From assembly GCA_017499595.2 (NCBI GenBank), contig CM039009.1, positions 62,001 through 126,000 on the forward strand: 64,000 bases of DNA, given 5' to 3'. Both the position numbers and the translations under genes were made by a program. How positions within the stretch are numbered: the stretch's first letter is position 1; each line of letters opens with the position of its first letter. The stretch comes from Psilocybe cubensis (Eukaryota). The notes under the pieces are model-generated. The model ran no database searches and was not told where the DNA came from. It saw only the letters and a list, made by a program, of their open reading frames with translations. Shown piece by piece: positions 13,908-61,594 of this stretch.

Positions 13908-13968
<61 letters not shown>

Positions 13969-40803: not shown

Positions 40804-41069
40804 TGTGACGGGGCGCGTTATTCACACGGGTCCCGGCACACTGTCGAAGCTCAAATGACTGGATAAAGTGGTCTATTCCAGCTCGTCCTACCACTACTCA
40901 AACTACTCGTATTTATACTACTCTATCTACTTATTTACGTCATATGTTTATTGTTTTGAGCAAGGTTGAAGGCGACAGAAAGAAATAGAATATCTTCGAA
41001 CATATGAATAAATCTTCCGAAGATAAGATAAGATGTGCTTACAGATGAACGACTAGTGACTCCGTCACA
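40804..41069 (-). repeat. 3' LTR (266 bp) of the Gypsy element
   Basis: Perfect 8-bp terminal inverted repeat TGTGACGG...CCGTCACA; purine-rich PPT-like GGAGGGCGTA immediately upstream on the minus strand; the pol stop codon overlaps the LTR start. Confidence 0.8.
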
Positions 41070-43320
41070 TACGCCCTCCAGGCATTCCCTGGGAATGACT
41101 TTTCTTCGGTCCAGCCTTGGAATAAGGTTGAAAGCGTCGTTTCGGATTGGTAATCGAGTTGAGTACGAACTGATTGACTGACTTCATCTGCCTGACATTC
41201 GAAATTGAAGCTGAAATTTCCATCGCATTCTCGATCTCGGCGTTGGAAGGGAAAATAACTTCGAGAGGGAATCGCTTGGCAGTCGGAGGAGTGAGGACTT
41301 TGCCCTCGACGTTGAAAATCGTGAGGCGTGCTTTCGGGTTGGGATCCTCGTGTAAATAACTGATGAACTCATAATAACCGATGGGCAATATGAGTCGATT
41401 CGCGTCAGACTTGAGGGCTTTGTAAGCGAATGAGATATATTCCTTCAGTTGCGCGGCGTGAATGACATGGAGCATGCCGGCCGGATCGAGTATACCATAT
41501 TCGTAGCGTGACAAGTGAAATACCGTGGCAAAACCGTGCGCAGGGACCCGGAGAATATCGATGCAAGGTCGTCCCTGCAAGTCATGCGGAAGGGTGGTGA
41601 AGAACATCTGCGACATGTCGATTTGGTCGTGGTTGATTCCCGATTGACCTTCACCCGATGCGGGGGTCACAACGTTTGCCGTCGTAGGTGCGACAGGCGG
41701 AGTAATATTTGCAACGGTAGGTGTTTGGGTAGCGATCGTCGCGGCTGCAGCCGTGGGCAATTGAGTGACCGGCTGCGCTGGTGCAGGTGTCGGCATTAAG
41801 GTGGCCGCCGGTGCGGTTGGAACCATTGTGTCCGTGGGAGTTGTGCCAGACGCCGCTGCAGGACTTTGCGAATCTGGTGAGATATCCATGTTGTTGAACG
41901 AGGTAGTGAGATTAGAAGTCGTGGTGTCGGCGTGTGACATGTGAGCAATGAATACAGCCAGGTAAGATGAGTGGTGTGAAATAGAGCCTTCAGTATGTGA
42001 ACTGTAGGATTTATATATCGCTCTGGTGATTATTTCCTCATCTAATATGGTCATTAATCCGACAAAGATTTGTGGGTCGTCTGGTGTATCTTTGCGGATT
42101 TCTCTAGAAAGTTCGTTAACTGTCTTGGCACCTTTTGCCTCTAAGTATTCTTCAAGTTCCTGTAAGTGTTTCACTTCAGTGTATGGGAGCCAGCTCTTGT
42201 CTCCTGACCTCCAAAGTACTTCAAATATAATGTTATTACTGTCTTTACTGTGTGAGACGATTTTCTCTACTGCCCACTCGCCCTCCAAGTCTTCATCACT
42301 GAAGATTTGACCGTCCAGACGACCTGGAAACAAGCGGTCATCATTAGGTATATGAATCCGTAGCAAGGACGCGTGAAATACGTCATGCACACCCCTTTTT
42401 CGTAGGTTGGCCGAAATTTCCACGCAGTACGAATTGTTGCCGAAGTCCTCAATAATTCTATACGGTCCCACAAAACGAGGTGCTAGCTTAAAACTCAGTC
42501 CTTTAGGTAGTGTGAAATTTTTAGTGGAAACATACACAAAGTCACCTTTCTGAAATGGTGCCCGAGTTCGTTTCCTATTCGCATTACGAATTGTCTTTAC
42601 TCGAGACGCGATCATGCAATCATGTGCACGCATAATCGCCGACTTCATTCGTCTAGCAAATGCACGTACACCGGGAAATTCACTGGGCTGATTAGATTGC
42701 CACAAAAACGACCTAGGCATACGTCCCATGTTGAGAAAGAAAGGCGCAAAACCTGTACTCTCTGATCGTGCCGAGTTGATTGCAAATTCTATTGCTGGTA
42801 ACTTCTGTACCCAATCCTTTTGATTCATAGAAATACAATGCCGGAGCATCTGCGCCACTGTCTTATTGGCACGTTCAGTGGCGCCATCACTTTGCGGGTG
42901 GTAAGCACTGGACATTCTCAATTTAGTACCAATCAGTTTATGAAGCTCCTGCCAAAATTGACTAGTGAACCATTTATCACGGTCACTGACAATTGCATTT
43001 GGCAATCCGTGATGCTTGTAAACCTCAGCAAACACCAACTCCGCAATATCCTTAGCTTTGTAATTCATACGGCCGGGAACCAGGTGTACCATGCCAGTGA
43101 ATAAATCAATGATTACGGTGATCATATCAAATGATCCGTCTCTATTCTCTGACACGGGAAGCGGGCCCACAAAGTCTATACCTATAACTTCCCAAGGTTT
43201 TCTGTTCAACTCCAATGGATTCAGAAGGCCGTAGGGCTGCTTATGACTATCTTTCCCTCGCATGCAAAGTGTGCAAGATTTGCAGAAGCTGTCAACATCT
43301 TTAGCTAAGGAATGCCACCA
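41065..43320 (-). CDS. pol: Gypsy pol, 3' half: integrase (CC, DDE core, GPY/F), chromodomain, long C-terminal extension
   Basis: WWHSLAKDVDSFCKSCTLC, IGIDFVGPLP, IVSDRD, SAYHPQSDGATERAN, PRFVGPY, VFHASLL, chromodomain EWAVEKIVSH...FEVLW. Confidence 0.95.
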   Translation of the reverse strand, partial: WWHSLAKDVDSFCKSCTLCMRGKDSHKQPYGLLNPLELNRKPWEVIGIDFVGPLPVSENRDGSFDMITVIIDLFTGMVHLVPGRMNYKAKDIAELVFAEVYKHHGLPNAIVSDRDKWFTSQFWQELHKLIGTKLRMSSAYHPQSDGATERANKTVAQMLRHCISMNQKDWVQKLPAIEFAINSARSESTGFAPFFLNMGRMPRSFLWQSNQPSEFPGVRAFARRMKSAIMRAHDCMIASRVKTIRNANRKRTRAPFQKGDFVYVSTKNFTLPKGLSFKLAPRFVGPYRIIEDFGNNSYCVEISANLRKRGVHDVFHASLLRIHIPNDDRLFPGRLDGQIFSDEDLEGEWAVEKIVSHSKDSNNIIFEVLWRSGDKSWLPYTEVKHLQELEEYLEAKGAKTVNELSREIRKDTPDDPQIFVGLMTILDEEIITRAIYKSYSSHTEGSISHHSSYLAVFIAHMSHADTTTSNLTTSFNNMDISPDSQSPAAASGTTPTDTMVPTAPAATLMPTPAPAQPVTQLPTAAAATIATQTPTVANITPPVAPTTANVVTPASGEGQSGINHDQIDMSQMFFTTLPHDLQGRPCIDILRVPAHGFATVFHLSRYEYGILDPAGMLHVIHAAQLKEYISFAYKALKSDANRLILPIGYYEFISYLHEDPNPKARLTIFNVEGKVLTPPTAKRFPLEVIFPSNAEIENAMEISASISNVRQMKSVNQFVLNSITNPKRRFQPYSKAGPKKSHSQGMPGGRM

Positions 43321-43633
43321 CATCAGTAAATCCGGATTTTCGGAGGTAACTCAACGTATTGTCCTGCCAACCGGATGTAGCATCAAAGTGGGCTGTAGAC
43401 AGTATAGCGTCATGTGTCATCGGCGGGATGCTCCGTTGAGCTCTGTAGCATTCCAACATTACTACTGCGAGCTTTGGATTTTCCTAGCTATCTCTATGTA
43501 CGATTCCAGACTTAGGAGAGTTTGATGTCCAATGTGATTGGTCTCAGTAAAGCTCTTCAATCATATCAAGCAATAAAATGTACATTTTTAAAGGCAATTA
43601 AGTGTCTATTTACAATGTAGTATCTTGACCCTA

Positions 43634-44184
43634 TTAATGATCCTGACATTCTCGTATGAGATCCTGCCCATTACTAAGAAAGTGTAGAAACAAAGTAGTT
43701 ATCACTGTGACTCACCTCTACCGTTCGAATATGAATCTGGCCGTTGGCTATAATGGACATCCCTTGGGTCAATATGTGCTCGGGGCTGCCTGAGTCTGCA
43801 TCCCGAAGTGTCTCCTCCTAGTTATCTTAAGCAAGAGTATCAACTTGAAACTTGAAGAAACAGAAAACTCACGGCTCGTGCTTTGAGCCACTGGTCACCC
43901 TCGGTAATCTTGGCTTTAGCCAACGATAGTAACCTTGGGTCCAGGGTGGTCCAGTTAATTTCGTTGAAAAGGGCCAGGATGGCCAGTATCAGCCTGTTCT
44001 CGGTCAAAAGGACCATTTTTTGGGTCTGCTCAACTAACTGAGCCATTTCCAAGTCGTATTGCTGTCTTTGAGAAGCAAGTGAGGCGGCCTCTGGGAAAGT
44101 TGTAGGATGTATTAGATCTGGGAAAGTAGGGGCCAATACTTCTGCTTCGATTCGTAAAATTTCCTCATAGCTGATGATTTGCAT
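43634..44184 (-). CDS. Small helical hypothetical protein (element cargo), 3 exons
   Basis: MQIISYEEILRIEAE...WLKARA, GTGAGT intron, EETLRDADSG...IRTVE, GTGAGT intron, DLIRECQDH*. Confidence 0.55.
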
Positions 44185-44428
44185 GGTGTGTGATACGCTC
44201 ACTTTGTCGTAGTTGGAATTCAAGCTGAAAACAAACTTTGCGGGTATAAAAATTCTTCAGGGGTTCTGTATACGTAAAACAAAGTTCTATAGATTTTTCT
44301 AGGCTAGTCTAAGAAGATGCCTATCTAACTGAATGCGGGAGGAGCGCGCGTAGTGGTGGCAAGCAAAAGAGTGATTATTGAGAATGCGTACTACATGGCG
44401 CGGTCGTGAAAGTTGAAACTTATTGAGA

Positions 44429-45620
44429 CTATGTGGCAGTTGCAGCACTCTCACCAAAGGCGCATTTGCCGACCCAGAGTCGCCATTGCAAGGCTTGTGC
44501 GAGGGCACGTTCGCAGCGACCAATTTCACGAGGTGGGAGACCAGATAACCTTGCCCAAGCACGGTTAGAATAACACTTTTCTTGTGAAAATTTGGAGGCC
44601 AGGATGAGGGATGCCAGAAAGGCTCTACGGGGACACAGGAGGGGAGATGGCAAAGAAAGGGTGGTGGAAAGAGGAGCCGTTGAGACCTGCACATCTACGC
44701 TGGACAGAGAGTCTTGTGGATAGATGCACGATTCAGCCAGATCTTGTGAACCAGAATCGGCAACACGGAATGTTTGCATAGAATTGTCAATGAAATTATT
44801 GATGATGTTGATCTTGCCGGAGTTCTCAAGAGCAGTAAGCTCAGCATCCATCGCCAGCTCTTCTGGGGTAGCTTTCTGAATACTGCTTTTGGGCTGAGCA
44901 TAAGAGCGAATGCCGATGTTTTCCTCTTGCAAAATCTGTGGGACCTTGGGACGAATGGATTCTAGATAACATAGTGCTATCTGCAGTACGTTTTTAGATG
45001 TCCTTGAGTGGCGAAGGACTTTATAAACAAAAGACTTGAGGGGTAATATCTGATCGGATTTGGTGCCCGAGGCAAGCAAGAGGGTCGGGGAAGGGTTATG
45101 GCCGGATACGGAGGGATGACTGTTGTGTGGATGTATTGGATGTGTATGAGACGCTATGGATTGCAAATCGGAAGAGATCTGCTTGGAAGTTGGACGGGAA
45201 TGAGTAGGAGGAAAAGAGCTACCCCCTACTTTGGCGGGGGGTAGGAACACGGAAGGAATATCCTGAGGGTGCCAGATCTCGGACAAGGTGCTGACAGCTT
45301 GATCTGCAATGGAATTTAAAAAATAAAGTGAGTATCTCCGGCAAGGTGGGCGCTAATTGAGGACAGGACAGACCGGCAAGCCTTGAAAAAAATTTTTGTT
45401 TAGAAGAAGAGGCGCTCTGGGAAGAATCCTTTGGAATTTGCGCAGTGGTGGGTGGAATAGATGAGTGAGAACAACTTGATTCTGCAGAAATGAGACGGAT
45501 GGAGGGGTATTCAGTAGGTAATGATACAGAGGCATGGCAGGTATGGATTGTGGGAGAGAGGCCAATGCTTTCCTCTTGCAAATTTTGGGAACCTTGGGAC
45601 GAATGGCTTCGAGATAACAT
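44429..45620 (-). CDS. Pho80/Pcl (Clg1-like) cyclin-box protein, 373 aa, one intron 45304-45373 (element cargo)
   Basis: DQAVSTLSEIWHPQDIP, FVYKVLRHSRTSKNVLQIALCYL and SPLLCPRRAFLASLILASKFSQEKCYSNRAWARLSGLPPREIGRCERALAQALQWRLWV. The start codon is uncertain. Confidence 0.85.
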
Positions 45621-45965
45621 AGTGCTGTCTGCAGTATGTTTCCAGATGTCCTCAATCCTCAAAGGACTTCAGTGGGTAGAAATAGGGAGGGAATGTCTTG
45701 AGGGCGCCAGATCTCAGATAAGGTGCTGACAGCTTAATCTGCAATGGAATTGAAAAAATAAAGTGAGTATCTCCGGCAAGATGGGCGCTAATTGAGGACA
45801 GGACGGACCGACAAGACTGGAGGCGAATTTTTGTTTAGAGGAAGAGGCACTCTGGGAAGAATCCTTTGGAGTTTGGGCGGTGGTGAGCGGAAGATGAGCG
45901 AGAACGACTTGATTCTGCAGAGATGAGATGGATGGAGGGATATGCAGTAGGTGACGATGATACAG
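45230..45965 (-). repeat. Tandem partial duplication (~435-bp period) of the cyclin 5' exon/intron
   Basis: AAAATAAAGTGAGTATCTCCGGCAAG.TGGGCGCTAATTGAGGACAGGAC occurs at ~45321 and ~45756; there is also a second ILQTALCYLEAIRPKVPKI copy at ~45575-45645. Confidence 0.85.
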
Positions 45966-46112
45966 TGTGAGAAAGCGGGACTGGTGAGAAGCGGCTGTTG
46001 ATATTGATCCGAGTCGTCTTTGTGTACAACGAGGCCGGCGTGTTGGGTGATAATTTGAGTGGCAATGTGCATTAGGGATTGAAAACTTTGTGGGTTTCCT
46101 GAGGTGGATATG

Positions 46113-49100
46113 TTATGATGACAGGGCCAAATAGAGTTCTTTGTCAAAATATTTGTTTAATCGGAACTCGGTGCTAGTGGAATGACTGTTATGTGTAGTA
46201 AGGCTTCGCCTTGCCTTCTCGCCCATCTGAGGGACCAGATCAACCAGGGAGCGTATTTGATTCAATGGTAAAATTCCACCCATAATGGTGTTATCTGTAC
46301 GTTGACTTCGTTTTAATTTATACATGCCGGTTATTGGCTCTGGGTAAGGTCCACGGATCGCAGAACCTAGAGACTGTGGCTGATTTAAAACCTCAAAACG
46401 TTGGACGTATGCGAGAAATCTTCCAGTAATATCGGGAGACACAGTACTGGGTGTCTCTCCGACAATGCGAAAAATAATACGAATGTTGACGACAGAATGG
46501 CCTACAATATTGGCTGGTCAACGGGGTTCGGAAAAAAGTCACAAAGAAGTACTACCTTGAAGCCCGCTGCGAGGCCACTCCTCAGATTCATCCACGTTTA
46601 TGATTGCTGAATCGAAGTATCCAAAAGGATGTTTGTTAGATGGCGGATATGCATTAAGTGTGACTGCCTCCAGGATCTCATGAGGGTATTGGTACGCAGT
46701 CGACTGTATACGGACCTTATGCCATACCTCAAGTTTTGAATACGGCAACGGACAACCGGGAGGAGAAACACGCCTGCCAGTTATCCCCTTGATGTGATAA
46801 CCTCGAGAATTGGTCTGTCTCGGATTTGATTCCTTATTGATGAGTGACACATAATCGGCAATTGCTGGTCGTAGGTCGGGAATTTTAAAAATGCTCGCAA
46901 CCTCGTCGATATGCAATCTTTTGGAACTAGCATCCCTAGATAAATGGGCAACAACGTTTTTGCTGCAAGAAAATGTTCTGTAGGGGACTGGGCCTTCCAA
47001 TACGCCACGCTCATAGAGACTAGCTTTGTAGAAGTAATCCACAATGCGATTGGACTTTGCTGATTGAAAGGTTGTCATCGGCATGATTGTTGAAAGAAGT
47101 TCTGACGTTGTGTCCATCACAACCTCGCCGTTTTCCTCCCCCTCATCCCCCTCCTCCTGCTCCTCCTCATCCGTAATTGTTGCAGAGTGTATAGCCCGAA
47201 AATCAATCCTCATTTCTCGTATAGCTGTAAACAAATCGAAATTGCGCAATTTGTCACGACGATCAAGGTATCGACAAACTTGAGGCTCGTATCTTTGATT
47301 ATTGCTGGAACTGGAAGGGGCTTTGACCACCTCGATATGTGCATGCTCTGTCGTGTCTGCAGACCATTGGATTGCACATCCATTTAGTCTAATTGCGTGT
47401 ACTACACTTTGCAAAAACTCGAGTTTTGGAATATAGAAATTATCGATTGGGTTGTTTTTTTTACCTCGACGTGCTCCCGCGTCAAGGATGGCTTGTTTAT
47501 TGGCATGGAAATCTTGCAGTGCCTGCTCAATTCTGAGACACATTGCCTCGGAGATTGTTTGAGATTGTGCGAGATACCGAAAGTCCATCAGAGACCGGAT
47601 GGCTAAGATAAAGGGTGTACTGACTGTGTCTGCAATGAGAGCAACAATGTATCGCTGAACGTCCCGATGTTCCCTACCGGTCACTTGTTTCAAGGAAGAA
47701 ATCCCTTCCTTGAAGTGTCGGAAACCAGTGCGGTGCTGTAAAATCGAAAATCGAAAATCCAATTCGGAACCTCCGACTGCAGCAATGCACCATTTTGCAT
47801 CATGATCCCAGAACATCTTGTGCCAGTGATGAAGGGGTTCAGGCGTAAGGAATGCAGAAGGATCAGACAAGGGCCAATCTCTCCAAAACGGTAGGTGAAC
47901 CCCATTGAGACGGTGCTTTTTGCTTTCTTTTAGATATGGTTCGAGATGATTAGGGGGCTTAACATTGTTGATGGCCATGATGGTGTTGATTGTATGATCT
48001 GCAGTTCGGGAAGGGTGGCGAAAGGAATCCCCAAACGTCTCGTATTGTGCCAACGTCACAGAGGATGTGGATCCTGCGACGCAAGCCGCCAGAGCAGATT
48101 CTGGAGTATCAACGATAAGGGCAGCAAGCGGTGTAAAGCAGAAACGATTATTCCCCAATGCATCTGCCATGGTGGTTCCCACCCTCGCAGTTTGTTTGAC
48201 CGATTCTAGAGCAATGTCCATGCACTGGTGATATAGCCGTGCTGCCATCATCCCATTCACAGCTTTGGAGCGATGAAGAAACTTTGGTATGGGAAGAAGA
48301 ACAAAAAGAAGGAATAAATGATTTGACGATTTGTTTCTAACGTTCATCATTATGTTGGCAATGCTGATAAGGCCAGGGTAGGCGACACGGCCTCCGGTCA
48401 TGTTGGAAATGTTGGTTTTATCCGTGGAAATAATAGGAGGTACAAGTGTTGCTCCTTTTGGGAGCTGGTCCTTGGGAACCTTGTTATACTGTCGTCAAAC
48501 TTGGACAAAGGCATTGCTACTAACCTGCATAAAATGCGCAATGTCACCGCTAAACCACTCAGTGTATACCCGCATCATCTCGTTGCACTTGTCGAAGAGC
48601 TTGAATGGGCTAAAGTGCATGCTATCTTGGAGCAAGGGACTGATGAGAAGCGCCTTGATACATTCCAATCCATCGCGGTAAAAAAGCGTTAGCTGATTTT
48701 TGCTTGGTATTTCTGGTATAATCGTTTGACTCTTCCACTGCGGACCAGAGGGAAGGATCTCTGCCCGGTTGCGTAGATCTTTTGCCGACTTGTAGGACAA
48801 GTTGAGTTTTTTTATCTATACGGGATCGACTCAGCTGAAATAAATAATGATGGGAATGTACGCTCAATTACCAGTTCAAGTTTCAAAAAATCATTCAGCA
48901 TTCCTACGCTCATGTCAGAGCGAAGTAGGAACAGGGAGAGCTCCCATTCATCTTTCGAGGCAAAAGGATAGTACAAATTTTCCGCCCGCTGGGGTTCGAA
49001 TTGATCCTGTTTGAGCTGATCCATGAATGTAAGGCCTGTTCCAAATGCTCTTCCAGCCCCGTTATAATCCTCCTTCACGTACGGATAGTTGTATTTTGAT

Positions 49101-49417
49101 GCCTTGGGGGGTGGGTCATCTTCCATCTCTGATGACGCGCCAAGAAAATTGTCAATATAGTCCACTTCCATAAAATTACCAATTTCGGGAGAAGGGTCTC
49201 GAGATACGGGGGTTGCTGATCTAGATGTAGAGCTTGAACGATTGGACTGAAAATGCATAACGTTCTCATATTGAAAACAACATGCCGATTTTGGTTGATT
49301 GATGTGATTTTGGACATCTGCATGCTTAGCAAATGGCTTGTTGCATCGAGGACAACGCACACAGATTTCCTGAGTTCTCTTGCCCTTGCCCTTTCCCATG
49401 TTGAAACAACGACTCAT
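46113..49417 (-). CDS. Plavaka-type (CACTA/EnSpm-related) transposase, multi-exon
   Basis: N-terminal CPRC..H..C zinc finger, YYPFASKDEWEL, LSYKSAKDLRNRAEILPSGPQW, LFYRDGLECI, RVYTEWFSGD, GATLVPPIISTDKTNISNMTG, IVDTPE, PEPLHHWHK, WSADTTEHAHI. No stops in the exons. Confidence 0.9.
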
Positions 49418-49888
49418 ACAAAAGCGAAGATACGAAAAAAAAACTGATAATGTAATGTTCAGTAACGTGCAGTGGGTCTATAAATGTTATCTGATTATGT
49501 CTCCGTTAATACAAACAAATTTCACATGGGTTAGTATTCAACCAATCCGTAGTACAATCCAAGGAGGGCTTCGGAAGAGCTTTACTGTATATACGCACCA
49601 GAACAAAGACACTAACACATTTTTTGAAGTGGGTGGAAGAAGCATCAACAAACGTAAGTTAGTTGATTTCATTGACCTTGATGATAAATTCAAACGCACA
49701 GCAGTTACAGTAAAGCCAGAAGCTTTCATCCCAGCGAGTATTTGCGTATTGGTCTGGCGATACGAGCAGCACACAACTACAGATAATAAAACAATCGTCA
49801 TTATGTTACAGGACATACACGCCTTTCAGTACTAAATAAAACATGGCATGTATGTAAATCAAGATGTGTGTCAATGTGTTGTACAATA

Positions 49889-52800
49889 TCAAAGTCGCCG
49901 TCGTTTAGAAGGCGGAACAGACTCTGATTCTGATGAAGAGATAAGCATTTGCGACGTAAAGGCATAATCGAACACACGTACTCGGATTTGTGCTCTCCAG
50001 CTTGACTTTCATGCCATCCAGATACAGTTTATCCCTCACACTCGTACCAAGTTCCAGAATCTCCTTGGGAGTTCCTAGTTTGTGACGTGGTTAGTGAATA
50101 TCCAAAGGCAGACACTGGTCCACCTACTCAATTGCGTTGAGGAATCCGCACAGGCATCACAGTCAATGAGAGTGATTACGGGTAACTTGAGCATCTTTGG
50201 GACCGAGGAACGAGGAAGCTGGTCGATACTGCGACATATAACCTTGTTCAATTCTCCGCTGCAGACGCCCTGAAGCTGGACAAAAAGCAAACTGGTGTCG
50301 GTACAGCAAGGGGCACCACCAATGTTGTTATGTTTGGCTTCTGCGTCGTAGGCTAGAATCATACGGGCATAGCGGCAAAGTATCATTTCATGGAACTTTT
50401 CTGTCGCCATGATATTTTGTGCATCCTTGTTTTTGTCCGTCTCAATCATGTAGTGGATGGACTTCGTGCGATGACATAGCCACTCTAGAATAGCCAAGGC
50501 TTCGCCACGGGCAAAGATGCACGCCTTGCGCTCTTCGTCGCTCAGGCTGTTGGTATCCCACCGCATCCATGCGTCTAACTGTGCCGAAGTCTTGGTGGAG
50601 AACATCTGATCGGGATTTCGATAGGTCTCGTAGTCGAGCGCATTTGCCAAGATCATGCACACGCACAGAGCTATCAAGCTCGAGTATCCGGACTGCGTAC
50701 TGTAGAATGGGACATGGTACATTTCATAAAAATCTGAGAGAAAATAGAAGAAAAGAATCAGATATCTTGTAGGAAACGGTAAAAAACCTCATACCTTCTG
50801 GGTCGCTGTCACCTTCAACCAAAACCTTGTAGAACCAATGTATGGTTTGCTGCAGGAAAAATCGGGACGTTGAATGATTCGTATTCGTTGCCCTGTATCC
50901 AGCGGTAAAACAGTGAATGATTCCTGTCAGGGTTTCTTCGAAGGAAGTGGAGGAGTAAAAATGTCCGCCACGGCAAACCACTGAGGAGATAGAATACGCC
51001 ATATGTAGAGTATTCGGTCTCATGAAGCTGTTTTTCAAAGTAGCGTCAATATAATCAAATGGGTAGGACATTCAAAAATCACATACAGTTCTGACTGGTT
51101 ATCGAGAACAATCGCCTCGTAAATCCAGTCTTGGTGGTGCGTTTCCCCGTAATCCAGCTTGTCTCCTAGAAATACACGGCGGTCAGAAGAAAGGTCAACA
51201 TCCAACCGTCTGGGATACATGATAATCCACAGCTTCAGTCCATGAAGAGGTTGGATGAAGGAACAGAAACCATTGGCATCGATATGGATATCTGAAAATG
51301 CCCCCTCTGTAGCTACGAGTCCCCATGACATATCACCAAATGGGACGGGGGTACTATACTTCCAGCTACCAGATGTAGCCCGAAGAGCAGCCGCCTCAGT
51401 ACTCAAGTCAAAAGAGTGAGCGCCTGCATGAGGTAAAGGGATGTCGAGGGCATTGAGGATCTTTCCTCTTTTGCCTTTCATCCTCGCTGCTTCCATGACC
51501 TGAGAGAGGGACCCACGCTTAATCCTCTCGATGGGGTTAGACGACATGGTCGACATATCTGTTACGGCCATTAGCATGAGACGCAGAAAGAAAAATCAAA
51601 ACATCGAAGAGGAAACACACCTTGGATTGACCTGGTGCTCGTCATATCACCCATATGGCGACGTACCTGGCTGTAGAACTCGTCGGAGCAAGTTGAAATA
51701 GACTCCTCTTGAGAAGGAGACATAAGGACGACGTTCCTTTCAGAGAAAGACTCCATCAGATACATGGATTTCGTGGTGCTGCGGTCGAATACCGCAAAAC
51801 ATGATTCTTCGGGACGTGCTATGTGCAATGGAACTCCATCGACGTAGTCACTCTCGACCAATTCCAGAACCCTTTCAATACGATCCACGTCGGCTTGACT
51901 CTTGTTTGGAGAATAAATAAATGACGAAAAAATCAATATCGAGAATGACTTACATGGGCAACAACGCAGAAACTTTTAAGTTGGCCACGACCGTTGTAGG
52001 TGGACCAAACTTTGGTGCCATACACCTTCTCCGGAGTGCTGACGACATCAAGGGTGGTGTTGCTGTCGTACAGATCGACATCAATACACAGGTCGTCGTC
52101 CGAATCAAATGTGTCGGTAGCCTGCGTCGGCTTGCGTTTGGGAGGCCGCTTGGAAAGGCCCTGCCGGCCCTTCCCTTTCCCTTTCTGAGAGGAGTCAGCC
52201 GTGGTGTTTTTGCTCCTGTTTATCTGGGAAACAGGAGGAATCCTCAAAATAAGAGGAGCAGGAGGTGCGTTCTCCCCCTCCTTTTCGCCTTGGCTGTCTT
52301 CCAATGTATTCCTCTCCATGTCTGAGGAATCATTGTTTTGCTCTGGGCCTACCCCCTCTCCATCGACCGACATTCTGTCCTCCTGGACTGGTGGAACATC
52401 CCCTTGCCCCTGCTTCTCGGTCTCATTGTCCGACGAACTGTCGTCTGGCCTTTCCTCCTCACCATCTTCTGACATTCGGTTCTCCTCGTCGGGTCGTTCT
52501 CCGTCTTGCCCCTGCTTTTCGCCCTCGTGAACTTCCGACATACGATTTGCCTCGTCAGAAGACCCTTCAGCTCCTTGTCCAGCCCCGCCGTCTCCCAAAT
52601 TTTCTGGACCATTGGTATGTGGACCATCCTCTATTTGATGGTCGACATCAGCTTGCTCCGGATCGACGTTCATCTCACAATCCCCTGCAGTTGAGGGCCC
52701 AGTATTCTCAGTCTGAAGTAGACCAGATCCAATATCATCACTCCGCGGCAAACCAGGTTGCTCGTCCGTGGGCACATCCTTGCCAGCCACCGAAGATGTG

Positions 52801-54452
52801 TCTTCCGGAGGCTGTATATCTGAGGTAGGGACCGTATTGTCCCCGTTCTCCTGTTGACCCATGCTGACATCCTTGCCAGCCACTGAAGACGTGTCTTCCG
52901 GAGGCTGTATATTTGAGGTAGGGACCGTATTGTCCCCGTTCTCCCGTTGACCCATGCTGACCATTTCCGTCGTGTCCACTTCGTGATCATCGTCACCCTC
53001 CGCGTCTGCGTCGGACCCTTCACAGGTGGTTTTTTCACCATGATGGGAAACGGTCTGAAGTTGAGCTGTTTTAAACGGATTTAAATCATGTAATTGACGC
53101 AGACTTTGCTTATAACTTACCGTGTGGTTCAGTGCTGCGCCTTGCTAGGTTAGAATTTGCTGTAACCTCGGCGCTGCTCGTTGACGCTGGCCAATTATTA
53201 GTTTAAATTGTTATTTTGTTACAGTACGTAGAACACACATATGAAAAAGTGAAACGCGGGATCTTGTGCAATTACCCGCTCGCATTCCATCCAGCAGTCT
53301 GAGATAACAAGTTTATATAAGGCTGACTGGATGTCGCAATTTTGCGCTGCAATGATTTTCCAAATTTCCATCTCCACTTCACGCAGAACACGGCGGCGAC
53401 AATTACCGAGCGCTTTTGAGGCCTAAAGGAGTGCGTTAATCCAAGTTAAACTGGGAGGATGTGGATACACCTACTTTAAGCAGCTGCTCCCGGTCACATT
53501 TCTTAGAATACCAAGATTTATTCACAAAAAGAAGGATGGGGGATATGAAAAGGGCGACATGCAGAGGAATTTTTAAATGAGATGGCGTGACCTCTGAGAG
53601 GAACAACGCAGCATCAGGATGGCCGCTTGCACTAGGGTATGTTGAGCAGATTGTATCAATGAATAGAGGAAAGAAAACTTACTAGAGATTTGCAAGAGTA
53701 GCCGTGTCCGTTGGAATGTCTGGTAGAACGTGTTCATCGTCCTTCATACCGCGCATTCCTGACAAGATTTGGTAGTGTAGCGAGGCGCAGTACACATTCC
53801 CGATTATTTTCCCCACAACACCCTTGAAGTGGTTACGCGCCAGACAGAGTAATAGCGTTGATTCCGAGGGCCCGCCCTGGGTGAAAGCGGATGACGGCGT
53901 GTCACTGATAGAAGGGGTGTTGATGTTTCTGTGCAACTTAGAGTCGGCTCTGAGGATGCGCTTCCTGGCAGAGCAGAGCATTGCCGGCCAGTCCTTCAAG
54001 TCATCTACAAGCTACAATAATTGTTTGAAAATTAAGAATTAACATTGAGTGACTTCATGATCGCATACCTTGAACCGTGAAAATATTTCCTTAGTTCCTG
54101 TGCTGGCCTGTATTTCATTCAGGGGCACGGTCACCGGCAACGATGGTCCAAAGGCTGCTGGCCACAACGCTACGAGATCGAGTAGACGGTATGCTGCAAA
54201 TAAGCTACCCGCCTGCTCCCATGTAGCCGAGGTTACGCAGGGTGTCTCTACGATGCTGTTCTGAAGGGCAGCCAAGCTTTGCCTATACTTGATGGCCGCT
54301 CGCATGCTCGATGATGAAACATCGTAATTCAAAAAGGTGAAGTCCTCATATCGTCGGAGGAAATCCACCATCCTCTACAGAAACTTGATATTAGTACCAT
54401 AAATGGCAATCCAATTAAGACCTACGCGGAGTGGGTGCGACTCTGGCAACAT
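49889..54452 (-). CDS. Large multi-exon JmjC-domain 2-oxoglutarate/Fe(II) dioxygenase with acidic disordered linker (element cargo)
   Basis: WGLVATEGAFSDIHIDANGFCSFIQPLHGLKLWII (HxD) and FMRPNTLHMAY...CRGGHFY (distal H); 93-bp internal tandem repeat at ~52775-52960; C-terminal PSKRRRL NLS-like. The exon joining and the 5' end are inferred. Confidence 0.75.
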
Positions 54453-54741
54453 GTTTTCCAGAGTCTGACGAACGACCTGCGTTTCGAAGGGAAACGCCAG
54501 AATTTCTTCAGCTTGGAGTCGGGCAACGGGGGAAATCTTCTGGGCTTGCACTACAAAACTTCAACGTCTCACCCTGCATTCTATTTCTTTGGGTACTTAC
54601 TTTTTTTTGTGTGTTTTTTTCTGGTGTCTCAAATTTTCAACTAGATGAATTTTAACTGAACGAAAACTATTATAGAGTGTCTAGAGTATTGTCTATGTCT
54701 ATTTTATTAGAATGTATGTTAAATCTATGGGGAGGGGTACT

Positions 54742-55008
54742 ACGCTATGACGAACGGAAAGAAAAACAATCAAGTTGGAAACACACTATTTCCGGAGCGA
54801 TTCTTTAGGGTAGGTTTCCCGTCCTGAAGTCACGAGTTGGTTAAAAAAACGCCCCCTTACATCAGCCGCATCACGGTGATGCGGCTGATGTAAGGGGGCG
54901 TTTTTTTAACCAACTCGTGACTTCAGGACGGGAAACCTACCCTAAAGAATCGCTCCGGAAATAGCGTGTTTCTCACCATATGTTTTCTCTTTCCGTTCAT
55001 CATAGCGT
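54742..55008. repeat. Long perfect palindrome centred on 54875
   Basis: 54786-54874 is the exact reverse complement of 54876-54964 (89-bp arms, 1-nt spacer: CATCAC-G-GTGATG); degenerate pairing continues out to 54742/55008. Confidence 0.95.
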
Positions 55009-55112
55009 CTTATCATAGTAATAGGTTGTGTAGTATCTAAAAATAAATTATCACAAGTTAAGATGATAAATTAAGTGAGATGAACATCGATTAACAGTCT
55101 TTAAGACCCACA

Positions 55113-57472
55113 ATGTCTAGTTATAAACGCAGACGACTTGACAGCCTAGGCAACCGCACAGTGTGTACTAATCCAACCCTCCATCTAATCACTAACTTCA
55201 GGGAAATTTAATTATGATCTCAAAAAATCAGGACATTAATCCCTTCATAGACATTGAAGCAGCGGTTTCCGATGATGATGAAAGTTCGGAAGAGCTTGAT
55301 TATGAAGGGGGCCAACTACGTATGTTCCAATAATTTACATATATTCTGCTCAATATGTACTGATGCTAATGGGTTCTGACATACAGTGAATGATAACGAT
55401 GAATACTCTGAGGATGAGGAACGTGTTGCACACTCTCGGCTATATCATGCCATGCAAAATACAGATAACGCTGATGAATGGAGCGATTTGTTGCCCATGC
55501 TTCTGCCTTCACGCATGAAAATTCGTCCTGACAATGATATAGAGCCATCTAGTTCACGAGAACTTATACAGAAATATGGCAATCCCCAACCAGGAGGACT
55601 TGGTGATAATAATTATATGCCTTCCGCGACTGATATCATGTATGAAATAGGTTGCAAGGTACGCAAAAATAATATAAGTCTTCAGTCAGCATTTATTGAT
55701 CACCTTACGAGTGATAGGTTGGACGCGAAGAGGCCGTCGCTTTCAAAATTATGCAGATGTCAACGAACCCTACATTTCCCATCATCCTTGCCCGGTCTGT
55801 CTTCGCTCAATCCTCAATTCCTGGGAGAATCTACGTCGAGGCGCCATCAATGCAACATGCGCATACGTTAGCCTGCCTCGTTAGAGAGCTTAATCCGACA
55901 CATTTAGTTAGGCTATCCTTGGAGAGATGTATGGAGATCCTATCTCATCCCCCACCCTCACGCCCTGAAGACCAATCGTGGGTCAAGGTTGCTGGAAAGC
56001 GTAAGGCTTGGACGACCTACGCAAATGCTACCGGCCTTGTGTTCACATTCCAGGGTCGGAAAAGTGTTGTTCTTATCCCCAGACCTCCGGACAACATCAA
56101 GAAATCGCACCTCGACAGGATATTCCAGGATGGATTTATTATCACGGATTTCGACGCCATCGATCTCAAATATCTTTCCAATGTCCTCCCAACATCGTCC
56201 GAGTTGGAGCAATTTTGCGAGTGTCCATTTGTAACGACGGAGACCTTAGCGCAAGCCTCGAAAGCCATCTCCATGACTCGACTGAAACGATATAATCGAG
56301 TCAAAATTATTGGTGGAGAATACTTAGGTCTTTTTGGAACGGTCAAGAGTGTTTCTGACGCTGAGGTGGAAGTGCACATCCCCTCCCAAGGTATAACACA
56401 AGCAGTTGCACTACACGATCTACGTGCAGCTTTCCAGATAGGCAATAGTGTTGAAGTCGTTGAAGGGGATCACAAAGATCTCCATGGATGGGTGTCAGAC
56501 TTTGATGGAAGATCTGTTTGTATTATCGCCCCAGAGCACGAACGCGAAGTAGGTGAACTGTCATTCTCTTTGTCTCAGTAGTGTTCAACACATTTTTCAG
56601 GTCATTGTGCCCATCCACACAGTCATATTCTACGTCCCCCCTGCCCATGCTACTCTTCGCCCGCGAAAGCGTCATTCGTCAAAGCTTGGAGAAAGAGACC
56701 ACAACGACGTCTATATAGGTTTGAGTGTCATCGTTGTCGGGAATAATACATTCAAGGGGTACTATGGCATCGTTAAAAGCACTACCCCCGACGGCTTTGC
56801 AGACGTTGAGCTGGAAGCTCGTAACCAGAGGGTGGAACGTATTAAAATATCACATTTAATTATACAGTATGTGGTTTCACTTGATTCGTTGACTGTCAGG
56901 TGCTTACTGACATTGTTTCAAGCAACCGAGAACATATAAATTCCGCTCAAGACCCCGGGCCTTCTGGTGGAGCAACTCCAATGCCGTCCACAGTAGCAAG
57001 TTTTCTGTCTCCTGCATGGAATCCGTATTCAGCAATACCTGTACACTCGGCGGTGGAAATCGCAGAACTACCCTCAACCGTCGCTCACTGGCTAGATACG
57101 AAATACGATAAGCTGAAAGGATTACGATTAAAAGTCGTAGACAAATCCAAGGGCGACCATCAAGTGGCGATGGAACTTCTCAGCCTTACCGACGATACTG
57201 CCCACCTAGCATTACTGGGACGTACACTGACATTACCGAAATCAGTGTTGTTTCCAATTCATCCTGTAAAAAAGGACGACTTCGTTACACCGCTTGAGGG
57301 CGATTCAATGGGGATTATATTCAGGATACGATCAATAGACAAGGATATTTGCGTTGTACATAAATATCCCGTTACTCGTATGAAACGCGGTGATACATTC
57401 CCAACTTTTCCGACAACATCTTTGATTCAAATCTTCCCCCCGTCCCGTGGTGTCAAAGTTGTAAATATGTAG
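55113..57472 (+). CDS. Spt5-like NGN + multiple-KOW protein (element cargo), multi-exon
   Basis: KRRR...INPFIDIEAAVSDDDE acidic N-terminus, YEIGCK/VGREEAVAF and SVFAQSSIPGRIYVEA (NGN), KOW motifs RVKIIGGEYLGLFGTV, SVEVVEGDHKDLHGWV and SVIVVGNNTFKGYYGIV, plus GATP...SPAWNP. Confidence 0.8.
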
Positions 57473-57639
57473 GGTGCAGCATTACTTGTATCTCGAACAC
57501 GGACTTGTAGACATATACGGGTTTTATGTCATTCTATTTAAGTGTATTTCGGCAATCAACAGTGCTAATGGTTCGTAATGTGTTGATCGTCTTGAACTTA
57601 AGCCACCACCACCACACCAAATTGTTGCCTATCTTTATC

Positions 57640-57995
57640 ATGAACCATTCCAATAGCAACAACGCTTCGCAACCTCAAAGTCGCCGCCTCCCTAGCATAC
57701 CCGAAGAGGCAGAGTTCTTCGTTTTAGGTCTATTTTCATGTTTTAATCCACCTTCCTCTAGAATCAAGGCATAGAGGCCGTTAAAAAGGCTCTTGACCAA
57801 TTTCAACTCACTGAACAGAGGTGTCTAGAAGTTCAGGCAGAGCTACGTTGTTATATGGACGACATTATGCGAGCATATAAATCCAATGAAGATCTTCTGT
57901 TTGAAACCCAGCTCGAAATCGCCCGTCTACGGGTATCCCTCATTAGTCGGGGAATACCTATTCTAATGCACCCTCAGGATAATCCGCGATCATGA
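57640..57995 (+). CDS. Small coiled-coil hypothetical protein (element cargo)
   Basis: MNHSNSNN...IPEEAE plus a downstream frame GIEAVKKALDQFQLTEQRCLEVQAEL...; the splice junction is uncertain. Confidence 0.4.
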
Positions 57996-58266
57996 TAGGT
58001 GCAGTCTTTTCCCCTCTGAGATGTAACTTTACTTAACTCTAAGTAGGACATGGAATCTGACTATAATGTATATGTGATATATTGTAGTAGATAGGGGTAC
58101 TGTTTCAGTACCTGTAATTTCTATATGGCACGATATATTTTTGACTGATGTCCGTCGCCTTAAATTTTGAAAAGAGGCTAATTTCGCATACCTCCGGATC
58201 GTAGCTTGACATAATTCACCACCCCTTATCTCTATTTCTGCATTACAACCGTCAAACCAGCCCAAT

Positions 58267-61008
58267 ATGCCACCTAAAGGATCCAAAAAGAAAAAGGCGG
58301 TTGTCAATGCCACGGTTGAAGGTATCATCTATATATCCTCATTACATCCGCATACTTAATGTTTTATCCATCTAGGACAAGAGGTTGAACAGGGTCCGAG
58401 CTCCGTGGCAGAAAACGAGCCACCTCAGGCTCCTGAAGCAGGTCTGTACTAGCATTTTCTTTGTTGAGATTCACTGAACTCCTTATTAAAAAGACCCCAA
58501 TGGCCGTCCTATCCGAAGCACCCGTGGTCTTGGTGGAGTAAATGCTCGGCAGGAGAAAACATCTAACATCATTTTTATTGACTTCGAGAAGGCTGGGAAG
58601 AGGAAGTCAAGGGCCGCCAATGTGGATACTAGCGCCATGCCTGAAAATGAGATGGCGCCTCCCTTGAAGAAAACTCGCAATGGGGTGAGTCTACTGTTCT
58701 AATCTTAAATTTGCTATCTTCCAAGCACATCTAGGTTACCGTTGTGCCGCATGTAGGTCCCCCTATTCAAATGCAACCAAGGCCAACGCCTTCAGTTGCT
58801 CCTTGGGATGTCCAACAAGTCCAACCAAGCCCACGACAATCTCAGGGTGCCCCCCCTCCTGTCCAGATCCAACGTGCAGCTCAGAGAAATCAGGAGCACT
58901 CAGAGCTTGATCATGCTGTCCAAAGACCCACTGCCCCCATCCAGCGCCCCGCTGCTCCGGTACAACAGCCAGCACATCCTGTCCCGCGCCCCGTACAACA
59001 TGCAGCACATCCTGTCCCGCGCCCTGTACAACACGCAGCAAATCCTGTTCAGCGTTACGCTGCCCCTGCGGTAGAGAATTCTGTCCAATACTACGATGCC
59101 CCCGTACAACAACCAGTGCATCCTGTAACACAACATGCCCCCATACAACAGCCAGTGCATCCAGCAGCCTATAACGCCCACCAAGAGGCTAGCATCAGCC
59201 ATCAAGACGAGGAGGAGCAACAAGATTACGAAGGCATAGAGCAGGAGGAAGATGAGGAGGAGGAAGAGGGGGATAGTGACGGTGAAAGGCGATCTGAGGA
59301 AGCATCAGGGGACGAATGCATGCAAGGAATTGATGAAGAGAATATTGGGGATGAAGAAGCTCTCCAATATGTCGACGGTGATGAAGGTTACGACGACGCG
59401 GGTCAAGATGATGAAGAGCCTGCTGCCCAGCGTTGGTTTAACTCCACCTTTATGTCGTGTTTGCTTACCACCTATGTTTGACAGTGGTTGATGAAGTTTC
59501 CGATGATGAAGAGGAGAGGAGAGCAAGGGCATTGCTCCGCCAGCCTTCCCCCCATGTAATCATTTCTCTGCTGTATTTAATGTCTAGCTAATGTATTATT
59601 GATATAGGTTGTGGAAGTAGAGGATGTTCTTCAAGAACACCGTCGTCGTAATCGGGCGAACAAGCCACCTCGCCCTGAGGCATTGCGCAAGGCGGCTGTT
59701 TCGCAAGGAGCCGTATCCCAAGGTTTGACAAGGGAGAACAACGAAGCATCTGACGATGATGAGGTGCTTGGTGAGGCACACATCGCTCATAAGAAGTCCA
59801 GTACTTCTTCTGCTAGGGAAGTATCCAAGCATTCAGTTGCATCCTTTACTGGTTACTGGAAAGATGTGCTCAAAATTGCACGCAAACTGATGTGCCTGTA
59901 TGTAGTAGAGGAGGTCCCCTTTCCCACTCGGGAAAATCACTTATTAGTCGCCGATGGATGTGTGAAGATGGCAGTAACCGTGTTTGAAAGAATGAACACG
60001 GATAAAGTGTTGCCTGATAGTAAGTTCTGTCTTCTGTGATTTTAGTTAATTGGTTTACATAACTTTGCAGAGAAAAAAATGCTCCTAGACAGGAATACCG
60101 CCGTAACGGTATATTTTTAGCGTGTTCTTTTAAGGATATCGTACTAACGTGTCTGTTCTCATTAGGCATTTGTCTACGCGTCAACCTTCCGGGGAAGACT
60201 GAAGACGATGATCAGACCCCTGGTCAAAAATGCGTATGGCCTCGAAGTCCCGTCGGAGGTCATCGCCGCGAACCCCAATATGTTTGAAAATCAGATGGGG
60301 GAGATCGAATACATCAAGGACAGGGTAGCATATTGGCTACTCAATGGTAAATACCACCGGGGTGTTGCCAAAACCCGAGTGAGTTCGCCGTCCATTTTAC
60401 CTGGCTTACCACTCATTGATTTGTTTCCAGTATCACGATGTCCCATTTGGACATCCTTTTGTGAAGAAGATCTGTCTGGACTTCTTCTACCATCCTACAA
60501 AAGGGGTTGCAGTCCCCATCAAAGGTCTGGAGACAAAGACGGATTTCTTCAAGACATCGCTTCCCCACAAAGCATTTGCGCTTGTGGCCAGTTGTGTAGT
60601 TCTGATTTCTCTCCTGCTATTGGCACTGCCTTGCTAACAAGCATTTTGCTGTAGATCCACAACTGTCTTGAGGAGTGGAGGGATGGGATTGACCCTGCAA
60701 GAGGTGGTCCGTGTTCGGGTATTGAATTCAAGGGAGAGGAGTACTCCCTGAGGTATGATGCCTGCATGTTGGTTGCAGCAGAGGCAGAGAAGGATACCTT
60801 GAACCAAGGTCCTCGCTTGGCTCGCTTATGTAGGGAAGTGGCTGAGGAAGGATGGTGTGTATCTTTTTTTATTCATTTCTTTCTTTGCATCATTTAGATC
60901 TCCATAATCAGTGCTATTATGAGGCCTACGAAGAACCCCCCCAACCCTTATAGGATGACTCTCCATTCTATCCCACAGGAGGAACTAGATTACGGTCCAG
61001 AAGGGTAG
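58267..61008 (+). CDS. Multi-exon nuclear protein, probable DUF6532-type, with P/Q-rich and acidic regions (element cargo)
   Basis: MPPKGSKKKK start, PVQ/HPV repeats, then YWKDVLKIARKLM..Y...EVPFP, STFRGRLK...RPLV..AYGL, PFGHPFV, FALVASC/IHNCLEEW.DG; many GT-AG introns. Confidence 0.7.
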
Positions 61009-61276
61009 TTGGGTGAATGAGCGGGGCAGCTGCCGGGTGTGGATTAGAAGATACCATATTTAGATCGTCACGTATTAATAGTTATGCATCTACTAATAGA
61101 AACATGTTTGGTCCGATCCAAACATAGATTATCTATTTTTAAAATTGCCCATTTTAGTCAAAAATGGTTCGGTTTTCAGTGTGATATTGGCACTTGCAGG
61201 AATAGCCACACAACACTATACAAATGAAAGTGGATACTATATATGCCTTTGTACCTATTTGCAGTGTGTTATGATG

Positions 61277-61368
61277 TGCTACAAATCTGTGGTAGCATGC
61301 TACAAATCTGTGGTAGCATGCTACAAATCTGTGGTAGCATGCTACAAATCTGTGGTAGTATGCTACAA
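61277..61368. repeat. Subterminal tandem array, 4.4 x 21-bp TGCTACAAATCTGTGGTAGCA
   Basis: Units at 61277, 61298, 61319, 61340 and a partial one at 61361; each unit is itself TGCTAC...GTAGCA. Confidence 0.9.
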
Positions 61369-61594
61369 TTTGTATGTCAGTTGTATACAGAGGGGTATGG
61401 ACCATGGTAAGCATGCTACACGCCGCTACACAGCACTCGCGTTACAATACAGATCACTACAGAGTACCATGTCACGTTGGTACCAAGCTACAGGTACATC
61501 AGTGTGTGTTACCCAAATGGGACCGTTACTATGGGCACTACAGAATTACGTATCACTACGGATCATTACCTACTTGGCCCCGGTATTGCTGATG

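Follow-up and report, generated by a model that had tools for sequence, protein, structure and literature searches.

In the Agaricomycotina, the PlavakaB transposons described by Kojima (2025, PMC12730594) have termini of the form 5'-CATCA..TGATG-3' and a target-site duplication (TSD) of 2 or 3 bp, and the accessory gene given for them in the main text of that article encodes a dioxygenase of the PE-type TET/JBP group, whose members, according to the same text, escape Pfam. Giant Plavaka elements are also described from the red alga Bostrychia in a preprint (10.1101/2025.02.11.637652), the body of which gives TET/JBP as the sole Plavaka accessory gene in fungi, and giant Plavaka-flanked repeats have been reported in Amoebidium. 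The structure of PlavakaB and the existence of giant Plavaka elements with chromatin-type accessory genes (in the red alga) are thus already known. Here we analyze a 64,000-nucleotide stretch of Psilocybe cubensis (assembly GCA_017499595.2, contig CM039009.1, positions 62,001 to 126,000 of the forward strand; hereafter the window, whose first letter is position 1 in all coordinates below). At 43321-61594 it holds an 18,274-bp insert that, judged from its sequence, is a PlavakaB (CACTA/EnSpm-related) DNA transposon, placed by cut-and-paste insertion in the zinc finger of a Gypsy integrase. Its cargo combines a histone-demethylase-like, an Spt5-like, a cyclin-like and a DUF6532 gene, a set that we did not find described for a fungal Plavaka.

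Boundaries, class and copy number of the insert

The limits of the insert can be read directly from the letters, with CATCAG at 43321 and CTGATG running up to 61594. On the plus strand, GGAATGCCACCA is followed by the left end, CATCAGTAAATCCGG, at 43320/43321, and the right end, CCGGTATTGCTGATG, is followed by CATACGATTTC at 61594/61595. The features that define the insert and its retrotransposon host are listed here (TIR, terminal inverted repeat).

41065-43320, minus strand: 3' part of the host Gypsy pol, with the second half of the H2C2 finger, the integrase core (rve), an SH3 domain (SH3_Tf2-1) and a weak chromo domain, from Pfam
43319-43320, no strand: left TSD copy (CA); CA stands on both sides, and removal of the insert with one CA brings the integrase frame back
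43321-43335, plus strand: left TIR, CATCAGTAAATCCGG; a weaker likeness to the right end extends to about 43349
43336-43820, plus strand: left subterminal region, with five TGTAG and no CTACA (counted in the first 500 bp)
46113-49477, minus strand: Plavaka transposase gene in four exons (48812-49477, with a C2H2-like finger; 48495-48815; 46539-48494; 46113-46517)
61095-61579, plus strand: right subterminal region, with ten CTACA and no TGTAG (counted in the last 500 bp)
61277-61368, plus strand: subterminal 21-bp tandem repeat TGCTACAAATCTGTGGTAGCA, 4.4 copies, the copy number differing among copies of the element
61580-61594, minus strand: right TIR, which reads CATCAGCAATACCGG on the minus strand; placed by the terminal pattern and by loose read ends behind 61594
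61595-61596, no strand: right TSD copy (CA), read from the sequence
61597-63999, minus strand: 5' part of the host Gypsy pol, with reverse transcriptase (RVT_1), RNase H and the first half of the H2C2 finger, from Pfam; it leaves the window

The insertion splits a single protein domain. Read on the minus strand, Gypsy pol comes in from the right flank as an open frame that finishes in EAHCLLAHLGARKTYSYLREIV, where the next letters belong to the insert, and the left-flank frame that emerges from the insert reads WWHSLAKDVDSFCKSCTLCM. Deletion of 43321-61594 together with one CA brings GTA up to TGG in frame and gives YLREIV-WWHSLAK, which establishes a 2-bp TSD for one copy (CA/CA). The last 68 residues of the right-flank piece before the insert contain positions 4-32 of the 59 in Pfam Integrase_H2C2, with two residues to spare, and the left-flank piece begins at position 35 and covers 35-58. 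The two halves abut in the profile, and the domain was therefore cut cleanly with nothing missing. The pattern CATCAGNAANNCCGG, with at most one mismatch, occurs twice in the 64-kb window, both times at the ends of the insert, against a chance expectation of 0.20 (at least two matches in 3 of 100 shuffles). The 15-base ends are inverted-identical at 12 of 15 positions, and the subterminal motifs, which have a window background of 1.06 per kb, are likewise inverted between the two ends.

The transposase gene, of the DDE type, is intact. Two of its exons match Pfam Plavaka (PF18759) at 6e-64 (profile 103-325) and 1.1e-16 (profile 1-99) of the 325 profile positions, with a score of 216.8 bits against a cut-off of 26.3; DUF6830 follows at 3.8e-45, and GT-AG introns preserve the frame at every exon junction. 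With this transposase, CATCA/TGATG termini and a 2-bp TSD, the element has the marks of PlavakaB. A metagenome search with a transposase exon returned 28 loci. All four exons stand in the same order in the metagenome contigs, and the encoded transposases are 38-61% identical. The terminus TT(T/G)GCTGATG lies 326-497 bp past the last transposase exon in 7 of the 15 loci that hold that exon; the same distance in the present element is 2,792 bp. In reverse complement this terminus reads CATCAGCAA(A/T)(A/T)CC.G.TTT, close to both ends here, and the related loci therefore provide independent support for the end assignment. A complete TIR pair was not definable in them, as they are partial contigs.

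Public reads show how often the unit occurs. In the run X15, which consists of raw reads from a related strain, 67,515 reads fall on the region 42700-62400, and 57,536 of them (85%) are at least 99% identical to it. Depth, summed over both directions, was 372-602x across 28 interior bins and 20.9x in the bin that lies purely in the right flank; the left bin, in which 36 element bases are included, had 37.3x. In the contigs of X1, word depth was 114.5-163.5 inside the element against 10.7 in the right flank. Since depth is flat over all genes, the repeated unit is the whole 18.3 kb, cargo included. X15 totals 1,631.7 million letters, and the contig sets of two other runs come to about 40 Mb; dividing the letters read by this size gives a single-copy depth of about 35-41x and therefore about 13-15 genome equivalents of the element. 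It would stand at about 26 times the flank level if just one of two nuclei contains that flank. Loose read ends gather exactly at the termini: 215, 121 and 53 X15 reads before 43321, 43320 and 43319 (389 in total, agreement 0.42-0.58) and 313 behind 61594 (agreement 0.39), with 60 more behind 61597. Uniform high depth, unrelated flanks exactly at both ends and 99% identity therefore describe a young multi-copy unit that is mobile as a whole. Full-length copies, nearly identical and spread over different sites, number about a dozen or more.

The copies are not all alike in structure. A 1,374-bp deletion within the transposase gene (47762-49137) is carried by 25 X15 reads, and at least one non-autonomous copy therefore exists. 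The 21-bp array varies, with a joint 61276->61319 that skips 42 bp in 29 X15 reads, and six X15 reads carry a joint from 43718 back to 43321, most simply explained as one copy inserted into the left end of another. Other X15 variants are joints 48088->48147 (19 reads) and 59099->59185 (26 reads) and a 108-bp duplication of 44445-44552 (18 reads). We also note that 121 + 53 of the 389 left loose ends still match the A or CA of the flank, which is commoner than random flanks predict; as a weak lead from the best-supported rows, this hints at a target preference for a dinucleotide ending in A.

An earlier note on this DNA, made from the letters alone, had proposed a young, precisely bounded Plavaka-type element with an intact transposase that splits a Gypsy integrase zinc finger. 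Its limits, termini and 2-bp TSD agree with the sequence, the frame restoration and the abutting Integrase_H2C2 halves, and the split itself with the finding of one Pfam half-finger on each flank. The termini, TSD and PF18759 match place the element in PlavakaB, and X15 depth, identity and varied flanks reveal the further copies whose absence the note had named as a ground for doubt. We regard the exact structure and identity of the element as close to certain.

Genes carried by the element

Besides the transposase, the insert contains the following features.

43840-45352, minus strand: cyclin-like gene with its main exon at 44432-45352 and an uncertain 3' part, from weak Pfam matches and the ESM Atlas
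45219-46112, minus strand: partial tandem duplication of the 5' region of the cyclin gene (repeat families D1, D5, D7 and D10, 81-88% identity, spacing 433-649 bp)
49977-54650, minus strand: large JmjC-domain gene of about nine exons, its 5' end approximate, mapped by the Psilocybe cubensis proteins P0004-P0007
54742-55008, no strand: near-perfect palindrome of 267 bp between the divergent JmjC and Spt5-like genes
55113-57472, plus strand: Spt5-like gene encoding an acidic N-terminus, an NGN domain and at least three KOW domains, its start mapped by the protein P0156
57511-57992, plus strand: short open reading frames (ORFs) between the Spt5-like and DUF6532 genes, no family assigned
58490-60894, plus strand: DUF6532 gene with a basic N-terminus, a P/Q-rich acidic exon and three domain exons

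The JmjC gene encodes a conserved N-terminal region, acidic repeats and a C-terminal JmjC domain (about 50075-51975), and Psilocybe cubensis proteins are 97-99% identical to the exons of the element. The domain was recognised only after a family profile and a structure model had been made. With the C-terminal 609 residues as the query, 916 clusters (50% identity) were found at E <=0.001. A 40-member family profile searched against PDB matched PHF2, PHF8, KDM7 and KDM2A (E 7e-9 to 8e-6), and of the PDB sequences at E <=10, 16 in all, the first 14 are JmjC lysine demethylases and the other two noise. Among the relatives, weak Pfam JmjC matches occur in 7 of 40, the best at E 2.5e-4, and in 2 of 35, and a phmmer search of P0007 against PDB returned noise. 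The AlphaFold2 (AF2) model of the domain has a predicted local distance difference test (pLDDT) score of 88.2 and a predicted template modelling (pTM) score of 0.91; used in Foldseek it places ceKDM7A at the top (1.1e-11), and the 30 best rows listed are KDM7A, KIAA1718, PHF2, PHF8 and KDM2A (E 1.1e-11 to 5.5e-9). The motifs HID, GLKLW and TLHMAY in the window exons represent the H-x-D...H metal triad and the lysine that binds 2-oxoglutarate (2OG). These active-site columns are nearly invariant in the family, with a strict H-x-D...G-x-K-x-W in 100 of 152 members. Ten family members whose origin was checked belong to nine genera of Agaricales, and UniRef gives the label 'JmjC domain-containing' to several members from eight Agaricales genera. 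Species with family members include Panaeolus cyanescens, Gymnopilus dilepis and Agrocybe chaxingu, and several of the genes lie on short contigs of 7-26 kb. The protein is accordingly a predicted KDM2/KDM7-type 2OG/Fe(II) dioxygenase, confirmed by profile and fold, with its metal- and 2OG-binding residues in place.

Two side observations concern this family. An Ulp1 (Peptidase_C48) domain is also present in 4 of 35 long members, and such domains are common in plant CACTA and Mutator transposon proteins. In the public gene models, P0004 (1,973 aa) is the JmjC protein fused with the Plavaka transposase of another copy, and P0005 and P0006 omit the exon with the distal histidine; the fusion and the omissions are annotation artefacts caused by the element.

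In the Spt5-like gene, NGN (PF03439) scores 24.3 bits against a cut-off of 22.4 (3.1e-5), KOW2_Spt5 43.7 against 28.9 (2.5e-11), KOW5 31.6 against 27 (1.2e-7) and KOW 29.1 against 22.3 (8.1e-7); the next exon reaches 27.7 bits for KOW5, cut-off 27. A phmmer search of the exon against PDB matches Spt5 at 1.2e-8, and a C-terminal repeat region was not recognised in the last exon. P0156 is one close Psilocybe relative with PF03439 annotated, and another homologue search, for longer proteins, found none. The nearest neighbors in the ESM Atlas are several Basidiomycota clusters of short KOW/NGN proteins, which we treat as a lead only. At the level of sequence, the plus-strand gene is confirmed as an Spt5 paralogue. 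The DUF6532 gene is assigned from colinear matches to PF20149 over consecutive exons, at positions 55-101 (23.2 bits), 113-158 (17.0) and 158-188 (14.6), each exon scoring below the cut-off of 24. In one paper, DUF6532 is co-listed with Plavaka and KDZ domains in the same Ganoderma genomes.

Both of these genes recur in the metagenome Plavaka loci. L002, L003 and L004 each have, upstream of the transposase, an Spt5-like ORF in which an NGN-like motif is accompanied by KOW1-like and KOW segments. One such ORF matches PDB Spt5 at 2.9e-6, and the L003 homologue has a faint match to RDM3/KTF1 (E 0.19); a metagenome scan with the Spt5-like exon of the element as the query returned no relative. L008 has a DUF6532 gene on the strand opposite to the transposase and upstream of it, the same arrangement as in the present element; the gene is conserved exon by exon at about 29% identity, two of its exons (29.5 and 24.8 bits) scoring above the cut-off. 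This recurrence beside distant Plavaka transposases makes the Spt5-like and DUF6532 genes recurrent companions of the transposase lineage, and old ones as far as these homologies indicate. Beyond the DUF6532 gene, L008 contains at 677-1947 a gene for THOC2 (THO complex subunit 2), presumably host DNA that marks the outer limit of the related element. L001 (1198-2224) and L008 (6767-7961) also share an upstream ORF with the N-termini SNDIS(T/I)KD(S/F)ST and no Pfam family, which may be another accessory gene of that sub-lineage.

For the cyclin-like gene, the nearest clusters in the ESM Atlas have scores of 0.93 and 0.92 and are 91-93% PF08613; a phmmer search against PDB gave noise, and a single-sequence AF2 model has a pLDDT of 38.3. 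The product is probably a PHO80/Pcl-type cyclin. The duplication of its 5' region predates the burst of 99%-identical copies, and the gene is a recent addition of uncertain use. The short ORFs gave no Pfam family at E <=1 beyond noise and have no relatives in the metagenome loci. No Tet_JBP match was obtained with Pfam in a scan of 37 distinct ORFs of the element, a scan that would pass over a PE-type TET among the unassigned ORFs.

The palindrome between the divergent genes has arms of 133 nt that are 92% complementary; all 10 mismatches lie within the outer 45 nt, and the inner arms of approximately 90 bp are perfect. Its center is CATCAGCCGCATCAC-G-GTGATGCGGCTGATG, the PlavakaB terminal motif doubled in each arm. 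In the reads, the central base is C in place of G in 37 of 86 (flip-flop), and strand-switch joints and a dip in depth occur there as well. The palindrome may serve as a promoter in both directions or as a transposase site inside the element, or it may be left over from a past rearrangement.

The earlier note had counted at least six cargo genes. The JmjC dioxygenase is borne out by family profile, fold and motif, the Spt5-like NGN/KOW protein by Pfam scores above the cut-offs and the match to PDB Spt5, and the DUF6532-like protein by the colinear matches and its L008 counterpart above the cut-off. The cyclin survives weakly and in altered form, as a probable PHO80/Pcl-type protein that has no clear standing as a transcription-CDK cyclin and no counterpart in related elements, whereas the two small ORFs, with neither a family nor relatives, drop out. 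Among the domain profiles the note had named, Plavaka, NGN and KOW score above cut-off, but JmjC gives no match and Cyclin and DUF6532 stay below. Its remark that no TET/JBP gene is present was correct for the 37 ORFs scanned, and the only dioxygenase found has a JmjC fold.

A proposed role for the cargo and its rivals

The copies may be targets of the host. Of the 296 places that vary in X15, 236 show C>T or G>A when compared with the window. CpG context was examined for 39 of the best 40 of 297 differences, with the palindrome center set aside: of the 21 sites at which the window has T or A and the majority C or G, 14 form part of a CpG in the majority sequence, and a CpG is likewise the context of 6 among the 7 minor changes from C to T or from G to A. 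CpG observed/expected is 0.81 in the element versus about 1.0 in the Gypsy flanks. Differences that are mostly CpG-to-TpG are the pattern expected from deamination of methylated CpG, and we take them as indirect evidence that the copies are methylated, which suggests that these are subject to host silencing.

The explanation that we favor, with moderate confidence, is a young autonomous PlavakaB element whose accessory genes would form a self-encoded anti-silencing module. The transposase would bind the TIRs and the subterminal GCTACA repeats and move the whole unit, and the accessory genes would keep its copies transcribable. Given its intact active site and KDM2/7 fold, the JmjC enzyme would remove repressive lysine methylation, here from histones in the chromatin of the element, and the Spt5 paralogue would replace host Spt5 on RNA polymerase II and secure elongation through a long silenced element. 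That the cargo is retained by selection for the benefit of the element seems to us rather probable; the specific combination of anti-silencing and elongation is a putative mechanism that we advance tentatively. The earlier note had likewise suggested that the cargo could work jointly against silencing or to promote the element's own transcription. The wider proposition, that fungal Plavaka elements recurrently carry an Spt5-like factor of their own, here with a KDM2/7-type demethylase, which overrides heterochromatin and 5-methylcytosine (5mC) silencing and drives transcription over 18 kb, is possible but doubtful. If true, eukaryotes would have their own equivalent of the dedicated NusG paralogues on bacterial mobile DNA, and the many short Spt5-like clusters and the 916-cluster JmjC family in Agaricales would be explained as transposon-borne.

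Several results pull in the other direction. Pfam JmjC has no match in the window exons or in P0004, P0005 and P0007, and P0007, a divergent paralogue, lacks the H-x-D. Both cyclin profiles are below their cut-offs (Cyclin_N, E 0.0032, 17.6 versus 23; Cyclin, PF08613, E 0.0049, 17.7 versus 21), and a partial duplication adjoins this gene. No JmjC or cyclin homologue is found in the flanks of any of the 28 metagenome Plavaka loci, 7 of which have at least 3 kb upstream; this absence, together with the short distance from transposase to terminus, makes the JmjC and cyclin genes lineage-specific additions rather than core components. The copies are too alike for a within-family test of purifying selection on the cargo. 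Finally, an uninterrupted Gypsy copy was not seen in the reads and the empty-site joint 43320->61597 is absent among the 15 joints listed out of 17, so that the TSD rests on the logic of frame and profile.

The main rival is passive capture, in which host genes or fragments are taken up in the style of Pack-MULE or CACTA elements and hitch-hike without benefit to the element; we think it unlikely. The missing JmjC and cyclin homologues beside the 28 related transposases fit it, as does the cyclin, which occupies the place where related elements end (326-497 bp past the transposase) and has a partly duplicated 5' region. All four genes are, however, complete multi-exon reading frames and not fragments, and the JmjC family has 916 clusters at 50% identity, 100 of 152 members keeping the catalytic motif. 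The Spt5-like and DUF6532 genes (the latter exon by exon, at about 29%) recur beside transposases that are only about 52-53% identical, which argues for long retention. Of the cargo genes, the cyclin agrees best with capture, and the Spt5-like and DUF6532 genes agree least. The palindrome invites another reading, namely a composite of nested unrelated elements in which a minus-strand transposase block and a plus-strand block were joined: the two divergent gene blocks meet there, its center resembles the CATCA/TGATG termini, and the reads vary in structure at this point. We consider this very unlikely. Depth is uniform over 18.3 kb, the two outer termini are the only places where loose ends have strong support, and the plus-strand block is crossed by single contigs that extend from the edge of the palindrome (54943-61306 in X6, 54943-60165 in X1). 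The arrangement is the same in L008, whose DUF6532 gene is upstream of the transposase and faces the opposite way. However it came about, the element is today mobile as a single unit.

Two further alternatives touch the identity of the enzyme and the nature of the insert. Distant TET/JBP-like proteins that profiles miss are described in transposons of Agaricales, PlavakaB included, in the main text of Kojima (2025, PMC12730594), and Pfam is silent on the present protein, so that the dioxygenase could in principle be a very divergent TET/JBP (PE-type) DNA demethylase. Its family profile nevertheless finds JmjC lysine demethylases as 14 of the 16 PDB matches, with noise for the rest; the Foldseek neighbors listed are JmjC-type oxygenases, with no TET down to rank 50; and relatives carry weak Pfam JmjC matches (7 of 40) and UniRef JmjC labels. 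A TET/JBP identity is highly improbable, and we rejected it on profile and fold. Segmental duplication or an assembly artefact, in place of transposition, would be compatible with the facts that no read or contig among those listed spans the whole insert and that no empty site was seen, but it is barely credible beside termini that are inverted and belong to a published class, a TSD of 2 bp, a protein domain split without loss, and hundreds of reads from an independent raw-read run that enter unrelated flanks exactly at both ends. The transposon with a putative self-encoded anti-silencing module remains the explanation that we prefer.

How mobile DNA evades silencing can be seen in transposons equipped with chromatin and transcription factors of their own. 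The published fungal cases involve TET/JBP DNA demethylases, and the present element points to a route by histone demethylase and elongation factor; the family is very young, with about a dozen copies, and its host mushroom can be cultivated, which leaves this idea open to test. The element also carries a warning for annotation: of the proteins labeled 'JmjC domain-containing', 'NGN domain-containing' or DUF6532 in gene sets of Agaricales, many are probably encoded by transposons. Elsewhere in the window, 8285-16900 has a G+C content of 0.51-0.58 and a strongly negative AT skew; both of its strands hold long ORFs without a Pfam match, among them one of 1,194 aa on the minus strand (8285-11869).

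Relation to described systems

The closest relatives of the element are the PlavakaB transposons of Agaricomycotina, with which, on the published description (Kojima 2025, PMC12730594), it shares PF18759, the termini, a 2-bp TSD, an Agaricales host and the possession of accessory genes. It differs in the genes themselves: in place of the PE-type TET/JBP dioxygenase given there, it carries four others, with no TET/JBP found. The main text of that article, supplements aside, mentions no JmjC, Spt5, KOW, cyclin or DUF6532. We found no fungal transposon with JmjC, Spt5 or comparable accessory cargo in the literature, supplements aside, and earlier deposition of such an element is possible.

In size, the giant Plavaka of Bostrychia (17.4-19.1 kb; 10.1101/2025.02.11.637652) is similar, and as described in the preprint it also has a Plavaka transposase, several chromatin- or DNA-modifying accessory genes, internal tandem inverted repeats and a proposed anti-silencing role. 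Its genes are different ones (PAG1, of unknown function; PAG2, an N6-adenine methylase with SET; PAG3, a DNA-binding domain, ParB-like according to the authors, with a 2OG oxygenase), its host belongs to another kingdom, and the copies described there are mostly degenerate, whereas those here are 99% alike. The same preprint cites as anti-silencing accessory genes VANC of VANDAL elements and the SET or 2OG genes of Helitron and Harbinger; these resemble the present cargo in concept, in that an element alters its own chromatin, and have no sequence relationship to it.

At the level of single proteins, the JmjC product resembles KDM2/KDM7 (JHDM1, PHF8, PHF2, KIAA1718) in fold (Foldseek E about 1e-11, target TM 0.5-0.63), in profile similarity, in the H-x-D...H triad and in the lysine of G-x-K-x-W. 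It is only about 11-14% identical to them, has its own N-terminal region and acidic repeats, and is multi-copy and transposon-borne; Pfam scans of the protein and its family gave no PHD, CXXC, F-box or other reader domain. The Spt5-like product shares with Spt5, the large subunit of DSIF, an acidic N-terminus followed by NGN and several KOW domains, but at about 700 residues it is shorter than host Spt5 (about 1,000-1,100), is encoded by a transposon and has no recognised C-terminal repeat region. Specialised Spt5/NusG paralogues include SPT5L/KTF1 in plants and, in bacteria, RfaH, which acts on horizontally acquired operons. By analogy with the NusG paralogues, our working picture of the Spt5-like protein is that of a dedicated elongation factor encoded by the very DNA that it would serve.

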